Positions 498 through 33,600 of a stretch of DNA of 39,717 bases are shown piece by piece; within the stretch, counting starts at the first letter, position 1; each line of letters starts with the position of its first letter. This stretch comes from Bacteroidetes bacterium QS_8_64_10 (GTDB lineage Bacteria > Bacteroidota > Rhodothermia > Rhodothermales > Salinibacteraceae): NCBI GenBank assembly GCA_003022505.1, contig PXTQ01000124.1, positions 1 through 39,717 of the forward strand. Direction: 5' to 3'. The notes below the pieces were generated by a model that saw only the letters and a list, made by a program, of their open reading frames with translations, did not search any database and had not been told where the DNA came from. Both the position numbers and the translations under genes were made by a program.

Positions 498-1061
498 CTA
501 ACGAGGCACATCATGACCCGCAGCGGAGAGTTCGCTTTCGTGGAGGCGGCGCGTCATGCGGCGAAGGCGGTCGTAGTCGCGGCGGGCCACGTCGCGCGTG
601 ATCGCGTACACGTCGCGGCGGTCGGGGTCGTCGCCGTCGCCGAAGACGGCCTCGCGCTTCCACATGCGGGGCGGCAGTTCTTGCAACATCCCGACGAAGG
701 CTTTGCGCGCCTCCTGCACGCGCTCCATCAGATTCGTGATGTCGTGCGCGTTCCAGTCCGCGCCGTCGTCGCCTGCGGCCAGCAGCGCCTCCTCGTCCGG
801 CGGGTCCAGGCGCGGCTCATCCTCGCTGGCGATGCGCTCGACCCAGCGCGGATAGACGGCCTCGTCGAGGCGTGCCAGGAGCGCAAACGTCTCCTTGATC
901 GACCAGTCGTCGCCTGAGGGCGGGCGCTCGGTAAGCACAGCGTCGGGAACCTCCCCGATGATTTGCTCCAGCGCGTCGGCCTCGCGGGCGAGGTACGCCA
1001 GCTGGTCGAGGATGCTCGCGCGCGTCTCCTCGGAGTGCGGTGGCTGCGTGTCGTCGGTCAT
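498..1061 (-). CDS. DinB-superfamily-like protein (function uncertain)
   Basis: 187-aa ORF with normal composition. The WSIKETFALLARLDE and ...RKAFVGMLQELPPRMWKRE... layout resembles DinB_2-type four-helix proteins, but the usual His triad is not evident. The overlapping plus-strand ORFs are Arg/Ala-rich shadows. Confidence 0.5.
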   Translation of the reverse strand: MTDDTQPPHSEETRASILDQLAYLAREADALEQIIGEVPDAVLTERPPSGDDWSIKETFALLARLDEAVYPRWVERIASEDEPRLDPPDEEALLAAGDDGADWNAHDITNLMERVQEARKAFVGMLQELPPRMWKREAVFGDGDDPDRRDVYAITRDVARRDYDRLRRMTRRLHESELSAAGHDVPR

Positions 1062-17994: not shown

Positions 17995-19617
17995 TTACGG
18001 CTCGCAGTTGAGAGGTGACGGCTCCGGCACTGAAACGGTGAGGTGCTCTTTCTCTATCCGATGTTGCCCGGACCAGGCGTTTGCCACCTTGAGCTTCACC
18101 TCGTAAGCTTCGACGGAATCATCGCATGCGAAGTCTGCTACCGGCACGGTGAGGTTGGGCGTATCGCTGTAATGCCAGTCTGAAGTTGTTCCGGAAGCAT
18201 GGCGCGTGCGGTAAGCGAAGATGACGTTGTAGTTGCCCGTAGCGCCTGACGTGTTCGGGGAGCCGTCGCCGACCTCGTGCGGGTATTCCTTGAAGATGCG
18301 ATACGAGTACGACGCATCCGTAGCCGCCCTTTTCCGGCGGGGTCCACTGATGGCGACACGGTATGGAAAGCCGGTAGCCTCCGTCCAGTCGAAGGTCAGG
18401 CCGGTCGTATTCACGCGGCTCAGGTTTTGGTCGCGCAGGTGCTGCACGTGGCGCTGCACGTCGCGGCGGCGAATGAGTTCGGGCGTGTAGTAAAACCAGT
18501 CTGCCTTCTGCTTCTTCGGCGTCTCGAGATCGTCGTCCGTGTCGATGTTGAAGCTCATTTTGGGAATCAAGTGTTCGTTGAGGCCGAGATTCCCGTGGAT
18601 ATACTTCAATTGCCCGTAGCGTGTCGCTCCTGTGCCAGCGCCGGCCCACAGGTCACTGTCCGCACGCCCGTTCCATCCATCGGCCCACATGCCGAAGCCG
18701 ACTCTGCCGCGCACCGTATCGACCTGAAGCACCAGCGTGAACCAGTTCTTCTCGATGAGCGATCCGCGTTCGTCGGAGACGCACTCCGGAAAACTGCGAA
18801 AGCCCTCCGCTGTGCGCAGCGTGCAATCCAGAAAACGACCTGTGCTGCGAAGCGGCCATTCGTGGAAGTTGATTTTCATCCTCGGCCTGCTGTCCGTTCG
18901 CTTCTGACCCGGCCCACCGCTAAAATGATTGTTGAACTCGAAGTCGATCTCGGTGCCCCATTGCCTGGTACACTGCCGGTTCTCCGCTCTGTACTCATCA
19001 AAGTCAATCGCGCAGTCTTGCTCCTTAGCATATTTCTTGTGCTGGCCGTCCTCGACGTACACGAAGTTGTCGCGGCGCGACCATAGCCAGAAAGCCTGGT
19101 TGAAGTTGTACCCGCCGTGCTTTCTGTTCTGCGGAGGGGCTTTATCGAACCAGATTCGTGCGGCGTACGTCCCGTGCCCGTGATGAGGGAAGAGAACGCC
19201 GCCAGCAATCTGGGGATCGTTGTTTTCGTCTGCGCCGTAGCCGGCCTGCCGCTCCAGGACGACGCGGTCAGACGAGCGCGACCGCTTCTCGACGTACACG
19301 CGAGTGCCCCGGCCCAGCGAGTTGTCGTCCCAATTGGATCGTCGCCAGAAACGATCCAGCGCCTTCGAGCGCGGGCCGGTCTGCCAGCGGTTACACTCGA
19401 AGATGCCGCCCGTGTCGGAGCAATTCTTCCGGCCCTGCGACTTGGCTTCGTTCAGGCCGGACTTTGCGGTGTACGCAAAGTCGTCGAAAATTGCTTTTCG
19501 TTCTCCCAGGTCGTAAGGTTGACCGGAGGCAGAATGGGCCCCAAGGCCCGTCAGCATTACGTGGCAGACGGCGAGGAGTAGCGTCAGTTGGGTGGGACGA
19601 GCATTTTTAGTTTTCAT
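17995..19617 (-). CDS. Secreted GH16-like (concanavalin-A-fold) glycanase with extra C-terminal beta-rich domain
   Basis: Signal peptide MKTKNARPTQLTLLLAVCHVMLTGLGAHSASG. The ordered GH16 signature is GTYAARIWF ... NQAFWLWS ... QWGTEIDFEFNNHF, with an ExDxE catalytic motif identical in form to the lichenase/XTH EIDFEF. Convergent with the GT4 gene, 9-nt gap. Start at 19617; the ORF is open to 19659, inside the inserted element. Confidence 0.65.
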   Translation of the reverse strand: MKTKNARPTQLTLLLAVCHVMLTGLGAHSASGQPYDLGERKAIFDDFAYTAKSGLNEAKSQGRKNCSDTGGIFECNRWQTGPRSKALDRFWRRSNWDDNSLGRGTRVYVEKRSRSSDRVVLERQAGYGADENNDPQIAGGVLFPHHGHGTYAARIWFDKAPPQNRKHGGYNFNQAFWLWSRRDNFVYVEDGQHKKYAKEQDCAIDFDEYRAENRQCTRQWGTEIDFEFNNHFSGGPGQKRTDSRPRMKINFHEWPLRSTGRFLDCTLRTAEGFRSFPECVSDERGSLIEKNWFTLVLQVDTVRGRVGFGMWADGWNGRADSDLWAGAGTGATRYGQLKYIHGNLGLNEHLIPKMSFNIDTDDDLETPKKQKADWFYYTPELIRRRDVQRHVQHLRDQNLSRVNTTGLTFDWTEATGFPYRVAISGPRRKRAATDASYSYRIFKEYPHEVGDGSPNTSGATGNYNVIFAYRTRHASGTTSDWHYSDTPNLTVPVADFACDDSVEAYEVKLKVANAWSGQHRIEKEHLTVSVPEPSPLNCEP

Positions 19618-19621
19618 GCCA

Positions 19622-19941
19622 CAATACTCCGTGCAGGTTTGAGACCGATTTGAAAGCAATTACCCCTCCCTTCACAATCGATTCGTTTTAGGACCCGTTT
19701 TGTGAGGTAAGAATGTATGGGGTTATGTCACTACAAGTAATGAGCTTATCATGCTAACCTCACTCTTCCTGTTCGGCAACTGGGTTAACCTTCCTCTTTT
19801 TCTCTATCCTCTTGCTTTCCAACCAACTTAGCTCCAGAGCCGAGTTGGAGGATTGATCTCTACGGGCCAATACGGATCTTTTAAGAGTCTATCCACCGCG
19901 ATTTGACTCGTAGATCCAAATTCAAGTTGCACGGAGTATTG
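19622..19941. mobile_element. MITE-like non-autonomous element, 320 bp, 14-bp perfect TIRs, flanked by 6-bp direct repeat ATGCCA
   Basis: CAATACTCCGTGCA (19622-19635) and its exact reverse complement TGCACGGAGTATTG (19928-19941). ATGCCA sits at 19616-19621 and again at 19942-19947. Interior is about 45% GC with no credible ORF. Confidence 0.6.
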
Positions 19942-20098
19942 ATGCCAAACAGTTTGGTTCTTCGGAAGATGACACCGATTTTGGATGCGGTACATCGTCT
20001 TGCGAGCGTGCCGAAAATCCATTCCGTCTCATACAAGCGCCTCGATTGCAAACGGCTGACCGTCGCAAATGATCGAGGCTGGCAAAGCCTTACCCTGC

Positions 20099-21289
20099 AT
20101 GCGCATTCAGGTTCACGACTTCGGCGGCTACCCGTATCCGGTGCAACTCAGCCGTCAACTTGCGCGGCGTGGCCACCGCGTCGAGCACGTCTTTTGCGCC
20201 TCGCTGCAAACGACGCCCGGCGGCGACCTCTCCGAGCAGCCCGACGATCCGGAGTCCTTCCGCATCGCTCCCGTCGAGCTGGATAAGCCGCTGGCGAAGT
20301 ATTCGTTCTTCAAGCGCTGGCGGCAGGAGAACGAGTATGGCCGCCGCGCCGCCGAGGCTGTCCATCGCTTCTCTCCGGACGTAGTACTCGCCGCTAACAT
20401 GCCGCTGGACGCGCAGAAGCGGCTCCAGAAAACCTGCCGCCGGCGCGACGTGCGCTTTGTCTTCTGGGTGCAGGACCTGCTCAGCATCGCCACGGATCGT
20501 ATTCTGCGCAACAAGATTCCGCTGCTCGGCCACGCCGCCGGCTGGTACTACAAGCGCATGGAGCAACGCCTGTTGCAGCGGAGCGATGCGGCGGTGCTGC
20601 TGACCGAGGACTTCAACCCGATTATGCGCGAGTGGAACGTGGACGAAGATAAAACGCACGTCGTCGAGAACTGGGCTCCGCTCAACGAATTGCCTACCCG
20701 CTCGAAGGACAACGCCTGGGCGCAGGAACGCGGTCTGCACGACAAGACGTGCCTGCTCTACGCCGGCACGCTCGGCATGAAGCACAACCCGGAGTTGCTG
20801 CTGCGCCTCGCCCGCCGGTTCGAGGAGCGAAGCGACGTGCGCGTCGTGGTGCTTTCCGAAGGATTGGGGACCGACTGGCTGCGCGAGAAAAAAGCCGAGC
20901 ATGATCTCGATAACCTCGTGCTGGATGGCTTTTACCCATTCGCGCAGATGCCGGAGATCATGGGCGCGGCGGACGTGCTGCTGGCCGTGCTGGGGCCGGA
21001 TGCAGGCGTCTTCTCGGTGCCCTCCAAGGTGCTGGCGTACCTCTGCGCCGAACGCCCGCTTCTGCTGGCGGTGCCGCCCGAAAACCTGGCCGCTCGCATT
21101 GTCACGGAACACGAAGCGGGGCGCGTCGTCGCGCCGGATGATGGCGACGGCTTCGAGCGGGAGGCGAAAACACTGCTCGAGGACGAGGCCTTGCGCCAAC
21201 GGCTCGGTGAAAACGCTCGCCGCTACGCCGAGAACACTTTCGCTATTAGCAACATTACCGACGAATTTGAACAGATCCTGCAAGCGTAG
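20099..21289 (+). CDS. Glycosyltransferase family 4 (WcaI-like)
   Basis: MRIQVHDFGGYPYPVQLSRQLARRGHRVEHVF... is a WcaI-type N-terminus. C-terminal GT-B half: YAGTLGMKHNPELLL ... PSKVLAYLCAERPLL. The antisense 450-aa ORF is a shadow. Confidence 0.85.
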   Translation: MRIQVHDFGGYPYPVQLSRQLARRGHRVEHVFCASLQTTPGGDLSEQPDDPESFRIAPVELDKPLAKYSFFKRWRQENEYGRRAAEAVHRFSPDVVLAANMPLDAQKRLQKTCRRRDVRFVFWVQDLLSIATDRILRNKIPLLGHAAGWYYKRMEQRLLQRSDAAVLLTEDFNPIMREWNVDEDKTHVVENWAPLNELPTRSKDNAWAQERGLHDKTCLLYAGTLGMKHNPELLLRLARRFEERSDVRVVVLSEGLGTDWLREKKAEHDLDNLVLDGFYPFAQMPEIMGAADVLLAVLGPDAGVFSVPSKVLAYLCAERPLLLAVPPENLAARIVTEHEAGRVVAPDDGDGFEREAKTLLEDEALRQRLGENARRYAENTFAISNITDEFEQILQA

Positions 21290-27634: not shown

Positions 27635-30600
27635 TCAGTTTTGGATGCTGACGCGAATGTTGACGCCGCCGTCGAGGCGGGTGGTGGAAGGGCGCTGGCT
27701 CTTTTCACTACTGAGCTTCTCGTAGGTCATTGTAAAGTCCGCCGAGACGCGGTTGCTGATGGTATACGAGATGCGCGGCGAGACGTTAATGCGCGAAGAT
27801 CGCTTCAGTTGATTCCGGTTGCTGCCCTGTTTCAGCGCGTTTCCGATGTCGTACTGATAGGGACCGGATTGAGCCGCTTCGCCGAGCGCGTTTTCGAGGC
27901 GATAGCGCGAGTTGTCGTTCAGGGCATAGGAAGCGGAAACCGAGAACTGAATCGTATTGTTGAGGCGCTCGATGGGCAAAAACGGGATGTTCAGGCCTTG
28001 TCGCTGGTACGAGGCATTGAACTGGATCTTGTTTTGCTTCTGCTCGCCGACGGTTTTGTTGCCGGGGCTGAACGAGTAGACGTTGCTCTTCGTCCAGGAG
28101 ATGCTGGTCTGCAAGTTGCCGTTCCAGGAAATGTCGAGGCCCACCAGCGGGCTGAACTGCTCGTTCACGTTCATCCGGCTGATGCGAAACGGCAAGGGAT
28201 CGTACTCCACCTGTCTGTTGGCAAACGGGAAGCTGGCCGTGGCGGAAGAGGAGAACTCGCTGCGATAGCCGGACTGATACGTGGCGTTGTAGCCGTGCTT
28301 GAGCGAGGCGCGCTGCACCCAGTCGGTGATGAAGGGCCACTGCGAGATGCCGGAGGAGGTGATGCGCCAGCCGGGCATGGGGAAGGGGAGAAGACCCCGA
28401 CCGTCTATCGCCCCGAAGCTGGTCACGTAGGCGCTGCGGAAGTCATTGATCGTCGTCTCTTCGGTCAGCACGGTGCGCCCGTCGCTGTTTCCGAGTGAGT
28501 CCTTGATGACGTTGCCGTCCTCCTGGAAGTCCCCCCGGAGCGCTTCAAGCTGGCTCTCGAAGAAGGAGCGGTAGGAGCCGCCGAAGGCCCACGTAGAGGC
28601 GCGGTTGGTACCGTTGCGGTTGGGTGCTTCGCCGATGCAGGCAGGGTTCTGAGTGGCCTGCTCAGTTTCACGCGGGGCAAAGCCGCAGCCCTGCCGATTC
28701 AGGTCCAAGTTGTAGGTCGTGCTGGAGCGCTGATCCCACTCGGTGTTCCAGGTCAGGTTGATCTGGAGGTTGTCGCTGGGCGAGACCGTGGCGTTGGCCG
28801 AAAGCTTGTTGCCGTTGGTCAGCTCGTCCTGCACGCGCAGCGTCGAGTCCATGACGCGGAAGCCCGACGTAGGGTCGAGTTGGCGGTTGAAACCGAACCG
28901 GTAGCTGAAAGGAGGAGCATTGCCCTGAAAGGCGTCCCAGAGGCCGTAGCCGCCCTCCACGCCCTCGATGCCGCCGCTCGAGCCGTACTGCGCGCGCCCC
29001 ACGTGGGAGGCGCTCCCCGACCGGTTGTTTGTGTAGTTGAGGCTTACGTTTTGCACGCTGGTAACGGCCAGCACGCTGCGGCGCAGCACGCTGCTCGGCT
29101 CCGGTAGGTAGGCGATCAGGTCGTCTATCACATTGCTGCTCAGGCTGTCGCTCGGCGCGCCCTTCTGCTGCCCGCCGCCGGCGGCGGCAGTAGTATCCGC
29201 CGGAGCCTGCCGGCCCTGGCCTTGCTGCTGATTCTTGTTTTGCTGCTCGCGCGCCTCGGCTTCGCGCTGCTTCTGCTTTTCGCGCTGCTCCGCCTTTTTC
29301 TGCTTCTCTTCCATTCGCGTGTAGAAATCAAACTTGCGCAGCAGCTTCTGCGGTTGAATTTCCAGCCCCGTCTTGATGCTGGAGTTGACGCTGATATTCG
29401 CGCCGGTGCGGTTGCCGATGGCCCCGTTCGTCCAGTTGTAATTCGCACTGTAATTCAGGTCCTGCGGCTTGATCCAGTCCAGCCATTTGAGGTCGCGCAA
29501 GAATTGCAGGCTCAGCGTCGTGTTGAAGCGCTGGCCGTGGCCTTTCGTATGCACGTCGCCGGGGTCGCTAAAGAGACGGTTCGCCACGCCGCGCGTGGAA
29601 ACCACGTTGAGGCTGTCGCGCTGGTAGGCGGTCATGCCACGGGAGAGCGTGTCTTCCACGTTGTTGGCGCGCGCGTCCGAGATAGTCCTCACGCGGCGGC
29701 CCGTAGAGTCGGTGACGACGACGCTGTACATCGAATCGGCGGAGAGCGGCTTGAGGCTCTGGTTGGTATTCGAGTCGAAGTTCATGCTGAGAAACTCGAA
29801 CGGGCTGTACCGGATGCCGCCGTTGCGTTTGTGCGTGAAGCCCTGCTGGTCGCGCAGTTCGTAGCGCACGCTGGGCGGCAGCGTGCTGGCGCCGGGGGTC
29901 GGGCTGGGACGATCCTTCGAGGCGCTGTAATGGCGCCGCGCCTGGCCCCCGAACCGGACCGAAGACGGGGCGTAGTTGAGCGCCAGATCCGACAGCAGGC
30001 CCACCACCGGCGCTCCCTCCAGAAAGCCGAAGGGGCTTACCGTGTGCGGATTGGCGCTCACTTTGTAATCGAGCGAGGCGTCCCACTCCCACGAGTCGTC
30101 GCGCTGCTCTCTTGGAGAAGCTGACGGACATGGAGCGCGACACCCGGTGCTTCTGGGCCGCGCGGAGGGCGTCATTGCGGGCTTCGGAGTCGTCCAGCTG
30201 GTCGAGGATCTCGGAGACGCGGATGTCGCCCCGGCTGGGCGCGAACTCCGGCGTCGAGGTGTTGGAACTGAGCTGAAAGCTGAAGGGGATGCGCCAGCCG
30301 TAGCGCGCCGGCAGCAACTTGTCGAGGTAAAATTGCGAGTCGAGCGTCCAGTTGAACCTGTTGACCTGCTGGCGGTCGCCGAGGGTGCTGTTGAGCGAGC
30401 CGAAGCCGGACGTGCGCCGCCGGAAGTTGCCGCGCAACGTGCCGAAGTCGGCCAGCTTGATGTTGGCGTTCGCCAGGCCCGCCCAGCCGGGTTTCTGATC
30501 GTAGCCGGCGACGCGCAACTCGTTGATCCACACCTCCAGGCGGCGCAGCGCGCGGCTGCCCACCTCGGCGTCGTAGCGCACGCCCACGACCATCGTCTCG

Positions 30601-33600
30601 ATCTTGCCCAGCGAGGGGTTGCCCTTCACGGCGAGGCGCGTTCCGGGCGGCGCAAAGCAGGTCGACACAATCGGCTCGCCGTCTTCCCCGAGCCGATCGC
30701 TCCAGAACAGGCTGTCGCGCGGGGCGCTACGGTTGTTGCGCACGAACTTGAGCTGGTTCAGGGCGCTGCGCTCGATGTTGACGGAGTTGAGGTCGAGCGG
30801 GCCTTGCCGGTCGGGGCAGGCGGGGTCGCCCCCGTCGTACGGCTGATTGGTCTGCCAGAGATCGTTTTGCTGCTGCACGGTGTATTCGCCGGCAGTCACC
30901 GTCGGCTCGCTGGGCGTAAGCGGCTGCTCGTACTCGTAGTAGTCGGTCGTCTGATTCGCGCCCAGCCGCACAAACAGCTTGACGTGCTCGCGCGCCTCCT
31001 CCGGGACGGTGCGGAGCAGCTGCCCGCCGACGCGCCCGTCCATGTGCACGAACATCCGCAGGTTGGAGTACTTGAGAAGGTTGAGACCTTGATTGAAGGT
31101 TTTGTAGATGGCGCGCTGCTGTTGCGGGCGTAAGTTTTCCACGCGCATCACCAGCGACTGCTCCCGCGTCACCTGCGCGCGCCCGCTGCCGCCCGCCGAG
31201 GGCGACTGATACTTGCGCACGGTGCCGAGCGGGGGGGCGTAGGTGCTGCTGTTTTCTTCGTTGTTGGCGCTGGAGATGGAGAGGCGTGTCTCGTCGGCAC
31301 CGGGAGCGCATGGTGACGGGATTGCGGTGGCCCGTCGTCCACAGCCGGAGGTTCTCGACGAGGCTGAAATCCTGCTTGTCGCCGACGTTGCGCGTGGGCT
31401 TCTGCACCGGGATGCGCACCAGATACCAGTCGTCGGAGGTCTGGCCGCTCTCGTTGCTAATTTTATTAATGACGTAGTCGTCCGGGTTATTGTTGGCCGC
31501 GAGTTCGTCCAGGCGGTCGGGCGCGAGCGGTAGCTCGTACTGAAAGTAGCTGTTGTCCGTGTCGAGCGAGGAGTTGCGGTTCAGGTCCTCACCGTCCGGA
31601 AAGCGCGAGTTGCCGCGCTCGCCGGGCCCGACCTCGTCCTGGCTCTCGTAGCTGTTGAGTTCCTGCCCGGCAAAGTAGTGCGTGAAGCGCTCCTGCAGGC
31701 GGCTCTCGCCGTTGAAGAAGTCGCTCGCGTAGTTGTGGTAGTCATCACCCGACGGGTCCTGGCGAGCGCGATCGACGGCCTCCTCGCAGGGGGCCGTCGT
31801 GCAGCTGTTCGCCATCTCGGTCAAAATCTGATCGTACACCGCCTGCTCGGACAGTTGTTGCCCGTCTTCGGTCACGTAATCTTGCGGAGCGTAAGAGGCC
31901 AGCCCGTCCAGGCCCAAGTCCTCGGTGCGCTGCGGCGAGTCTTCGCTGATGTCCAGCCCGCCGCTCACTGAACCGCCGCCGATCCGGCTCATGGAATCCA
32001 CCAGGCTGGTCGTGCTGAGATCGTTGATGCCGAGGCCGTCTTCCCGGTTGTACTCGCCGTTCGGAATCACGTCCTCAGAGACGGAGCCGAGGTCCAGGAC
32101 GAGGCGCCCGTCGGAGGAGGCGTTTTCGACGTGATACGGCTTGAAGACGAACTCGACGAACTCAATATTTTTGAGGTTAAAGTCGTTGTAGCCTTCGGGC
32201 AGGTTGAGCGTGATGCCGCCCCAGGTCTGTTTGGGGTTGTTGAGGAAGTCCTGGAGGTTGCGGTTGTAGTTGTAGGGGCCGCGCTCGTTCGGGTTGAAGT
32301 ACACGTCGAACGGACTGATCCGGTTGTCGCCGCGCTGCTGATCGGGCTTGTTGGGAAAGACCTGCTTTTGCGGGGGCCGCACGACGGCAGCCGTGAGGTT
32401 GGTGTCGTCACCGAGGCGCTGGACGATGTTCTGGTTGAGCTTGTACCAGCCCATCGAGGCGCGCCAGTTGGAGCGGGTGCGTTCGTCGCCCAGGCCGGGC
32501 CGAGGGGTGGGGAGACCTTCGAGCCGGACGGGGGCAGCGGAGAGGTGCCAGGAGCCGGGTGAGGTCAGCGAGAAGGTGTTCTCGAAGCCTTCGAAGTCGT
32601 CGATGTAGGATATGCCCTCCAGCTCGTCGGACTTAAAGTCCAGCCCTTCCGCTTGTAGCTTCTCGCGGGAGCGCTCGAAGGCGACCGTTTCGCCGTGGCC
32701 GGGGCGCAGGTGCGCCACCTCGCCGCTCACGCTGATGGCGCTGGGGGCTTTCGTCTGTACCAGCGGCAGCGCGTCTACGGCCCACGTGAGCCAGCGCGGT
32801 TCCAGCTCCAGGCTGCCGTCGATGCCCAGAATCGTGTTGGAAACGGGTTCTTCGCCGACGCGAAACTTGTCGACGGGCGAACGCTGCGTCAGGCGCATGG
32901 CCGTTGCGCCGAGCGAGAATCGCTTGCCGAGCTTGTAGTCAGCGCGCGCGCCCAGAAGCGTTTTCTTCTGCACGTTGAACAGCTTGTTTTGCTCGTAGTC
33001 GATCTGAATGTCGCTCCCGGAGGAGAGATAGCGCGGATTCGTAATCGTCACCGTGCCGCCCTGATAGTCCACCACGTAATCCTGGCCTTCCTGAAGTTCG
33101 GTGCCGTTGGAGGTGACGCGCACCGAGCCTTCGACGAGGCCGGAGAAGGCTTTCAGATCGTAGAAGCTGGGCTGGTCGCCCTTGTACGAGCCTTCGATGT
33201 TGTAGATGTTCTGATCGAGGTTTCGCTCGGCCGTCGACTTCTTTTCGAGATAAAGATCGTTAAAGACGTACTTGTTCACCAACTCGTCGCCGCCGCTTTC
33301 TTCCCTGACGACGTTTTCGAGACGCTTCCCGAACGGCTCCAGGTACGGAAAGATGACGAGGCCGTCTTGCTGATCAAGCGTGTACGGGGTCATGTCGAAC
33401 TCGGTGTCCGGTCCTTCCTGGCCGTCTGAGTTCTGGCGGTCCAGGCCCAGCTGATGAAGAAGCCGCTCGCTCGTAGACAGGCCCTCCAGGGTGGTTTGTT
33501 GCGTGGAGCCGGACGGCTCGTAGTAGATGTTGAGATCGAAGCTGGAGGGCTGCAGGTTCGTGGGCCGCAGGAGCTTGAGAACGAGGTGGTCTTCATCCGT

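Follow-up and report, generated by a model that had tools for sequence, protein, structure and literature searches.

Bacterial miniature inverted-repeat transposable elements (MITEs) are non-autonomous elements with terminal inverted repeats (TIRs) that are mobilized in trans by the transposase of an insertion sequence (IS), as exemplified by Correia/NEMIS of Neisseria and by the IS-derived MITEs in ISfinder. Here we describe a 320-bp unit at positions 19622-19941 (plus strand) of contig PXTQ01000124.1 from Bacteroidetes bacterium QS_8_64_10 (assembly GCA_003022505.1); this stretch of 39,717 nt, analyzed at its full length, is referred to as the window. The unit is very probably a MITE, that is, a 320-bp non-autonomous DNA transposon. 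This interpretation, proposed in an earlier note on the same DNA, was borne out by ends shared with transposase-carrying IS elements, by a target-site duplication as long as those that these IS leave and by a second 320-bp copy.

The IS groups closest to the apparent partner of the unit differ in the duplications that they leave. Target-site duplications are about 10 bp in IS4 proper and about 5 bp in the IS701, ISH3 and IS1634 groups, which are regarded as "emerging" families (PMC2266710). The range given for IS4 proper is 7-13 bp (Table 1, PMC2266710). IS701 elements are 1.40-1.55 kb long and make a near-invariant 4-bp duplication, and most of their transposases do not have the YREK motif's tyrosine (PMC2266710). 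A text search of the literature returned generic mentions of IS701-related MITEs only, with no description of the element reported here.

Anatomy of the unit and insertion sequences with the same ends

The boundaries of the unit were found exactly as first described. Two direct copies of ATGCCA, at 19616-19621 and 19942-19947, bracket two perfect arms, CAATACTCCGTGCA at 19622-19635 (plus strand) and TGCACGGAGTATTG at 19928-19941 (plus strand), which are exact reverse complements of each other at 14/14 positions. The arms are separated by 292 nt and their pairing ends exactly at the outer edges, where A stands opposite A. Extended complementarity of the arms, which had been put at 18 of 22 positions, is actually 17 of 22. 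The plus strand was assigned to the unit because, in this orientation, its left end corresponds to the left end of the related IS, which is the transposase-proximal one. At this end, the initial 22 nt, CAATACTCCGTGCAGGTTTGAG, are those of the IS left ends and are followed by a second GATTTGAA motif, the counterpart of which in IS copies is GGTTTGAA or GATTTGAA. This IS-like left subterminal region (19622-19657, plus strand) is presumed to be bound by a transposase. The G+C (GC) content of the unit is 44.7%, compared to 60-62% in the 1-kb flanks and 61.8% in the window; the contrast noted earlier was thus right for the interior (about 45%) and overstated for the flanks (about 65%). No open reading frame (ORF) of at least 40 amino acids (aa) lies wholly within the unit. 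The 64-aa ORF that had been assigned to its interior does exist, at 19828-20022 on the minus strand, but it starts outside the unit. No second copy of the unit was found within the 39.7-kb window.

The decisive evidence lies outside the window, in independent IS elements whose ends are, at the sequence level, identical to those of the unit. When metagenomes were scanned for the 17-mer TACTCCGTGCAGGTTTG, 33 matches were obtained, about the number expected by chance, and screening left one real relative, contig L009. Two contigs that carry the full 20-mer (L007 and L014) were rejected as coding-sequence coincidences, the one in L014 lying inside upp. In L009, CAATACTCCGTGCAGGTTTGAG... and ...TGCACGGAGTATTG bound a 1,328-bp IS with a single 420-aa ORF, so that this IS and the window unit have 22/22 nt in common at the left end and 14/14 at the right. 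The ORF matches DDE_Tnp_1 (3.5e-13) and DDE_5 (3.3e-10). Its homologues at E <= 1e-10 number over 3,000, most of them on contigs of 1.3-1.6 kb, as expected for a multi-copy IS that collapses in assemblies. D110, D200 and E326, together with the motif Y319-x2-R322-x3-E326-x6-K333, are invariant across 14 homologues of 48-100% identity. IS copies retrieved purely via the protein, from unrelated metagenomes, possess the same ends (L048-L054 and L058-L063), and CAATACTCCGTGCA is identical at the ends of the IS in L009, L048-L054 and L060-L063. Members of the group are 1,318-1,399 bp long, with the left end CAATACTCCGTGCAGGTTTGAG and a right end of ...TGCACGGAGTATTG or ...TGCACAGAGTATTG. The transposase gene that the earlier note had proposed to look for between the same inverted repeats therefore exists, in L009 and its protein-retrieved relatives. 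The window itself contains none, in agreement with that note, and tblastn with the partner transposase was also empty there.

The L060-L062 variant, with a transposase 78% identical to that of L009, has CAATACTCCGTGCAGGTTTGAG as a 22-nt perfect repeat at both ends. In the other IS variants and in the MITE, only 14-15 nt are common to both ends.

The 6-bp duplication around the unit is a footprint of the same family, as had been supposed. A 1,351-bp IS with a transposase 68% identical to that of L009 (P0019) is present in ten copies at ten different sites of one assembly, mostly between genes. Nine of the ten copies are flanked by duplications (TATGC, TAGGTA, ACACTTAT, AGGTTA, CTGCTT, GTTAG, GAAAC, AACTAA and GGGGC), which measure 5 bp in four cases, 6 bp in four and 8 bp in one; the remaining copy has none. 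The copy in an NCBI genome (L053) is flanked by TTATAC, again 6 bp. The duplicated targets are AT-rich: G and C make up 25/64 of their bases, compared to a genomic GC content of 62-66%. ATGCCA in the window, of a length in line with the 5-6-bp duplications of related IS copies and located in a spacer of 51% GC, fits this AT-rich, mostly intergenic footprint.

Two further observations concern the IS group and its insertion sites. ENA assembly ERZ25070591 (L037-L046, and L040 at 1-288) holds at least 11 copies of the 1,351-bp relative with identical transposases, some of which adjoin IS of other types (IS3-like rve, DDE_3 and DDE_Tnp_1_assoc), which points to a recent burst within a genome rich in IS. 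An ATG stands directly outside the right end at three of about 16 independent sites (window 19942-19944, L003 743-745 and L060 1880-1882), giving GGAGTATTG-ATG, in which a Shine-Dalgarno (SD)-like motif precedes an outward-reading start codon. This arrangement may reflect a target preference or chance. The plus-strand ORF that begins at the right end in the window (19942-20286) had no family match.

A second copy of the 320-bp unit was found, as the first reading had anticipated, at an unrelated locus in another genome. Species genomes (185,579 in total) were scanned with an exact-match pattern that combined the 11 innermost nt of both arms with a gap of 277-307 nt. The single match was in JAAAOL010000077.1, "Bacteroidetes bacterium GSL.Bin22" (L003), a metagenome-assembled genome (MAG) whose GSL label we read as Great Salt Lake. 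The copy, at 423-742, is exactly 320 bp long and is identical to the window unit in its 14-nt arms, 292-nt spacing, first 20 nt and last 15 nt. Ungapped comparison of the interiors gave 101/280 matches, compared to 70.5 +/- 7.2 for shuffled sequences, and identity is about 60% with gaps; on this alignment the L003 interior is homologous but strongly diverged. In L003 the copy is flanked by a beta-helix ORF and by rnc, a setting that has no relation to the window locus. Two units of equal length and spacing, with homologous interiors and at unrelated loci, imply that the 320-bp form predates the divergence of the copies and has occupied at least two sites.

The insertion at the window locus is old and is fixed in every sampled haplotype. 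The near-orphan 540-aa protein encoded next to the unit forms a single 90% cluster with six members; besides the window (the NCBI contig), it is carried by five contigs from ENA, Logan and three JGI samples. The element occupies the identical position in 6/6 of these population contigs, which represent at least four haplotypes. Within the element 10/320 positions are variable (3.1%), compared to a synonymous polymorphism (pS) of 2.4% in the adjacent gene, and one of these positions is a T-to-C change in an arm, seen in two haplotypes. As this variation is close to the synonymous rate, the element is drifting about neutrally. Contigs L056 and L057 end within the element and were considered as repeat-induced assembly breaks; this was rejected, as strain-level single-nucleotide polymorphisms adjoin both break points.

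From these data, a route for the insertion can be proposed, with mobilization in trans and cut-and-paste chemistry modeled on the established IS4-group DDE transposases (PMC2266710). The recognition ends would consist of the 14-nt terminal repeats and about 36 nt of left subterminal sequence. A related IS would provide an IS4/IS701-type DDE transposase in trans. Once bound to both ends, the enzyme would excise the unit or copy it (cut-and-paste) and then join it to target DNA cut with a stagger of 5-6 bp; repair of this cut would create the ATGCCA duplication. The landing site was a spacer, relatively rich in AT, that separated two divergently transcribed genes. When the unit and one ATGCCA are removed in silico, the rebuilt pre-insertion spacer is 125 bp between the two divergent start codons, compared to 451 bp at present, and the predicted empty-site junction with a single ATGCCA is TTTTAGTTTTCATGCCAAACAGTTTGGTTC. 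Of the original intergenic DNA, 121 bp of 51% GC remain between the insertion site and the adjacent glycosyltransferase gene (19948-20068).

Internal structure and competing explanations

The interior of the unit contains two hairpins on the plus strand. In the first, CTTCACAA...TTGTGAGG at 19670-19707, positions 19670-19677 pair with 19700-19707 (alignment columns 49-56/79-86); it is kept in the divergent L003 copy, in which one-sided changes preserve the pairing. The central hairpin, CCAACTTAGCTC/GAGCCGAGTTGG at 19823-19848, has the core CAACTTrGCTCCAGrGCyGAG conserved in L003. A consensus fold of three sequences retained the hairpins. As only two of these sequences are independent, this conservation is treated as a lead and not as evidence. 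Scanning for sigma-70-type promoters revealed two weak plus-strand sites in the element, neither of which is conserved in L003, and an exact copy of the Bacteroidota-type -7 motif, TAnnTTTG, is absent from the element. GGAG of the arm lies 9 nt before the minus-strand ATG of the neighboring gene. In the window, only about one gene start in four is preceded by an SD-like motif, so this GGAG is given little weight. Rfam families were found neither in 19300-20300 (E <= 10) nor in the whole window (gathering thresholds), and no tRNA or tmRNA genes were detected.

Several results weigh against the MITE interpretation. The 14-nt inverted repeat alone is not significant: among 200 approximately dinucleotide-preserving shuffles of the window, 72 (about 36%; mean 0.56) had one or more perfect inverted repeats of 14 nt within 1.5 kb, and the real window has three. 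Duplications are absent from the IS copies on short-read contigs L009, L048, L060 and L063, on which the two flanks may belong to different IS copies. The L003 unit likewise has no target duplication. A right-handed beta-helix-like ORF adjoins it (L003 1-742), has no N-terminus and continues open into the element for about 22 codons. This suggests that an adjacent deletion took away the gene's 5' part, and such a deletion would be a plausible cause of the absent duplication. The exact-match pattern, which is poorly suited to finding diverged copies, retrieved only that one further MITE copy from the 185,579 species genomes, and the paired-arm scan of JGI metagenomes (11 + 11 nt, gap 277-307) returned 0 matches. 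There was no overlap between samples with the partner IS and those with the window population, and a partner transposase was demonstrated neither in the same genome nor in the same sample. No empty site was observed, all six contigs that encode the orphan protein being occupied. Finally, local alignments of the MITE interior with four IS interiors scored equal to shuffles.

The last result leaves the remaining approximately 270 bp of the unit unrelated to the IS interiors compared, so that the unit did not arise from these IS elements by simple internal deletion, and that origin was rejected. Beyond the genomes and metagenomes, blastn of the unit against plasmids and phages gave no match, and viral contigs contained neither the paired arms nor the 20-mer end. 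More distant orthologous loci are unavailable for comparison, because the orphan protein has no close homologue.

How far could other explanations account for the same structure? The shuffle result, and the presence of two further perfect 14-nt inverted repeats in the window, would suit a coincidence in which an inverted repeat and a direct repeat, both fortuitous, fell together in ordinary AT-rich intergenic DNA. The abutting 6-nt direct repeat contributes a factor of about 3e-4 (from base composition), however, which lowers the joint expectation to roughly 2e-4 per window, and neither the 22-nt end that bounds independent IS elements retrieved via their protein nor the second 320-bp copy elsewhere would be expected by chance. 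Judged by the sequences of the related IS elements, coincidence is effectively refuted and its probability is close to nil. A history with more in its favor is decay in situ, whereby a full-length IS inserted here, made the ATGCCA duplication and later lost its transposase by internal deletion or replacement, the 320-bp unit itself never having transposed. Ends and duplication would then look alike, and neither an empty site among the six contigs nor a second copy in the window documents that the 320-bp unit itself moved here. The interior, however, is unlike any of the four IS interiors, with scores at shuffle level, and a unit of the same length and 292-nt spacing with a homologous interior sits at an unrelated locus in another genome. 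Decay in situ is therefore quite improbable.

Still less probable is a conserved regulatory cassette or structured non-coding RNA, in which the 14-mers would be operator or leader motifs that place GGAG upstream of two divergent starts. Both arms do stand just upstream of an ATG (GGAG + 9 nt for the minus-strand gene and GGAG + 5 nt for the plus-strand ATG), and in L003 they likewise abut an ORF and an ATG. The two internal hairpins and several blocks are kept between copies that are otherwise about 40-60% identical, and the single strand folds more stably than shuffled sequences do (z = -3.84). It is the paired termini, however, that contribute most of the folding energy, and these same arms are the ends of transposase-carrying IS elements. 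Moreover, the ATGCCA repeat is direct, not symmetric, and the population variation runs at a neutral rate with one arm affected. The absence of an Rfam family even at E <= 10, the scarcity of SD-like motifs at window gene starts (about a quarter), the lack of an exact Bacteroidota-type -7 motif in the element and the plus-strand ORF from 19942 without family support also argue against a regulatory role as the origin of the unit. A MITE that carries the ends of its partner IS accounts best for the shared termini, the duplication and the second copy together.

The other two perfect 14-nt inverted repeats of the window differ in setting. One, TTGCGTGATGCGTG / CACGCATCACGCAA, at 342-418 with a 49-nt spacer and an extra direct TTGCGTGA at 364-371, occupies non-coding DNA downstream of the DinB-like gene at 498-1061 (minus strand) and may represent a terminator, a repeat element or a chance occurrence. 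The arms of the other (30232-30245 / 30955-30968) are about 700 nt apart inside coding DNA and, judged by the shuffle control, are most likely a chance match.

Flanking genes, possible co-option and host

The gene to the left of the unit (17995-19617, minus strand) encodes a secreted near-orphan protein of 540 aa with a signal-peptide-like N-terminus and a predicted ConA-like beta-sandwich fold that includes the motif EIDFE (ExDxE). Its minus-strand ATG (19617-19615) overlaps the left ATGCCA and is 4 nt from the unit, as had been observed. The NCBI record starts 20 codons downstream and gives 520 aa, and other sources give 540 aa. The gene is intact in 6/6 contigs, with 9 synonymous and 12 non-synonymous variable sites and a ratio of non-synonymous to synonymous polymorphism (pN/pS) of 0.39. 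Divergently transcribed on the other side is a GT4 glycosyltransferase gene (20069..21289, plus strand), which starts at 20069 or 20099.

The 540-aa product had been described as GH16-like, and this holds only in part. No Pfam match was obtained at E <= 10, PF00722 included, and no sequence match in the PDB. An exhaustive phmmer search gave 27 remote relatives of at most 39% identity. Among 20 aligned relatives, 11 carry a C-terminal sorting domain of the type IX secretion system (T9SS), two carry CBM_4_9 and one has a weak match to PF00722 (GH16; 2e-4). Pfam did not detect a T9SS sorting tail in the window protein. E223, D225 and E227 of EIDFE are invariant or nearly so among the aligned relatives. 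The AlphaFold model (pLDDT 76, pTM 0.75) matches legume lectins and other ConA-fold proteins with E values of 1e-4 to 1e-6 and target TM scores of 0.4-0.5, and the top 50 structural matches include no GH16 structure. The superfold and the ExDxE motif thus remain plausible grounds for the label, and the profile match is missing. The protein belongs to a small, very divergent family with an ExDxE motif and, on the predicted model, a ConA-like fold.

As the earlier note pointed out, the unit parts this gene from its native upstream DNA, here by 326 bp. An in-frame upstream ATG that the note had placed at 19659 is in fact TTG. The intact state of the downstream gene is a weak argument against silencing. 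As the gene has stayed intact despite the displacement of its upstream DNA, transcription would be implied to start in, or pass through, the element. Any effect on expression is something that we infer. A broader proposal, which we hold to be rather unlikely although far from negligible, is that the MITE has been co-opted as the 5' region of one or both flanking surface-glycan genes and, separately, that the IS group is an unclassified lineage bridging IS4 proper and IS701/ISH3/IS1634. Were co-option true, the element would supply the promoter and/or leader for a secreted ConA-fold protein, and its hairpins would be functional, for example as a terminator/insulator or a protein-binding site, rather than leftovers of common ancestry. 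A gene that has had its whole upstream region replaced by transposon DNA and yet is intact offers a natural test case for MITE-driven expression.

Surface-polysaccharide clusters tend to vary between strains and are thought to be relevant to the evasion of phages and predators. The unit lies within such a cluster of Wzx/Wzy type, at approximately 8.4-23.6 kb of the window, which comprises Wzz, a Wzy-like polymerase, a flippase, several GT4 transferases and an epimerase. The window also contains UPF0182, purQ-like and SprA (T9SS) genes, as well as several ORFs of 190-850 aa without a Pfam match. The best named relatives of the UPF0182 protein are from Salinibacter, Salisaeta, Longimonas, Salinivenus and "Bacteroidetes bacterium QH_2_63_10". 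Identity outside its own population does not exceed 57%, which indicates a poorly sampled lineage. Together with SprA, these relatives place the host among deep-branching halophilic Rhodothermota (Salinibacteraceae-like), consistent with the recovery of the second copy from a GSL-labeled MAG.

Comparison with known elements

By its sequence, the partner IS is IS4/IS701-like, and several mismatching features keep it from fitting any one of IS701, IS4 and IS1634. Its best NCBIfam matches were IS701_3 and IS4_1, both below cut-off. The IS701 model NF049999 gave 79.9 bits against a cut-off of 170, so that the family score is not reached; NF033540 gave 55 against 150; and IS4_1, the second-best match, gave 77.6 bits against 115. 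The match to the NCBIfam IS1634 model was negligible (E = 0.005, 15.8 bits). Among plasmid-borne relatives with an annotation, the nearest, from Leptolyngbya and Deinococcus, are 36-40% identical and are named merely "transposase". Given a complete YREK motif, duplications of about 5 bp and scores below the cut-offs, the group is described here as IS4/IS701-like rather than assigned to one family.

The likeness to IS701 comprises a single-ORF DDE transposase with Pfam DDE_5 and DDE_Tnp_1, a best NCBIfam match to an IS701 model, a short target duplication (about half a helical turn) and the end signature of YACT at positions 4-7 and Y at position 9, which CAATACTCC fits. Unlike IS701, the partner IS duplicates 5-6 bp (8 bp in one case) instead of 4 bp, has the complete YREK with Y319, R322, E326 and K333 invariant, is slightly shorter at 1.32-1.40 kb compared to 1.40-1.55 kb and scores far under the curated family cut-off. 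With IS4 proper it shares the complete invariant Y-x2-R-x3-E-x6-K and the DDE triad, 5'-CA ends and a single unframeshifted ORF, whereas its 5-6-bp duplication contrasts with the 7-13 bp of IS4 proper and its score lies under the IS4_1 cut-off. The 5-6-bp AT-rich target duplication and the ends that begin with C are as in IS1634; in contrast to IS1634, the length is 1.3-1.4 kb rather than 1.5-2.0 kb, the YREK arginine is present and the NCBIfam match is negligible.

For annotation, the end CAATACTCCGTGCAGGTTTGAG together with a duplication of 5-6 bp can serve to recognize this IS group and its derivatives. The unit and its relatives document a MITE and IS pair, active in the past, in uncultured halophilic Rhodothermota, in which mobile elements are poorly catalogued. 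Both the kind of element and its mechanism are already known from bacterial MITEs, and no general concept is changed. Compared to described bacterial MITEs, the unit differs in having two known copies that are located in two different genomes, in an interior unrelated to that of its known partner IS and in hosts that are uncultured halophilic Rhodothermota. In other respects it resembles them closely: it is small (320 bp), has perfect TIRs and no coding capacity, shares its ends with an autonomous IS and is flanked by a duplication of the length made by that cognate IS. Like them, it occupies an intergenic position beside a start codon, could form a long hairpin if transcribed and occurs at non-homologous loci, in the window and in L003.

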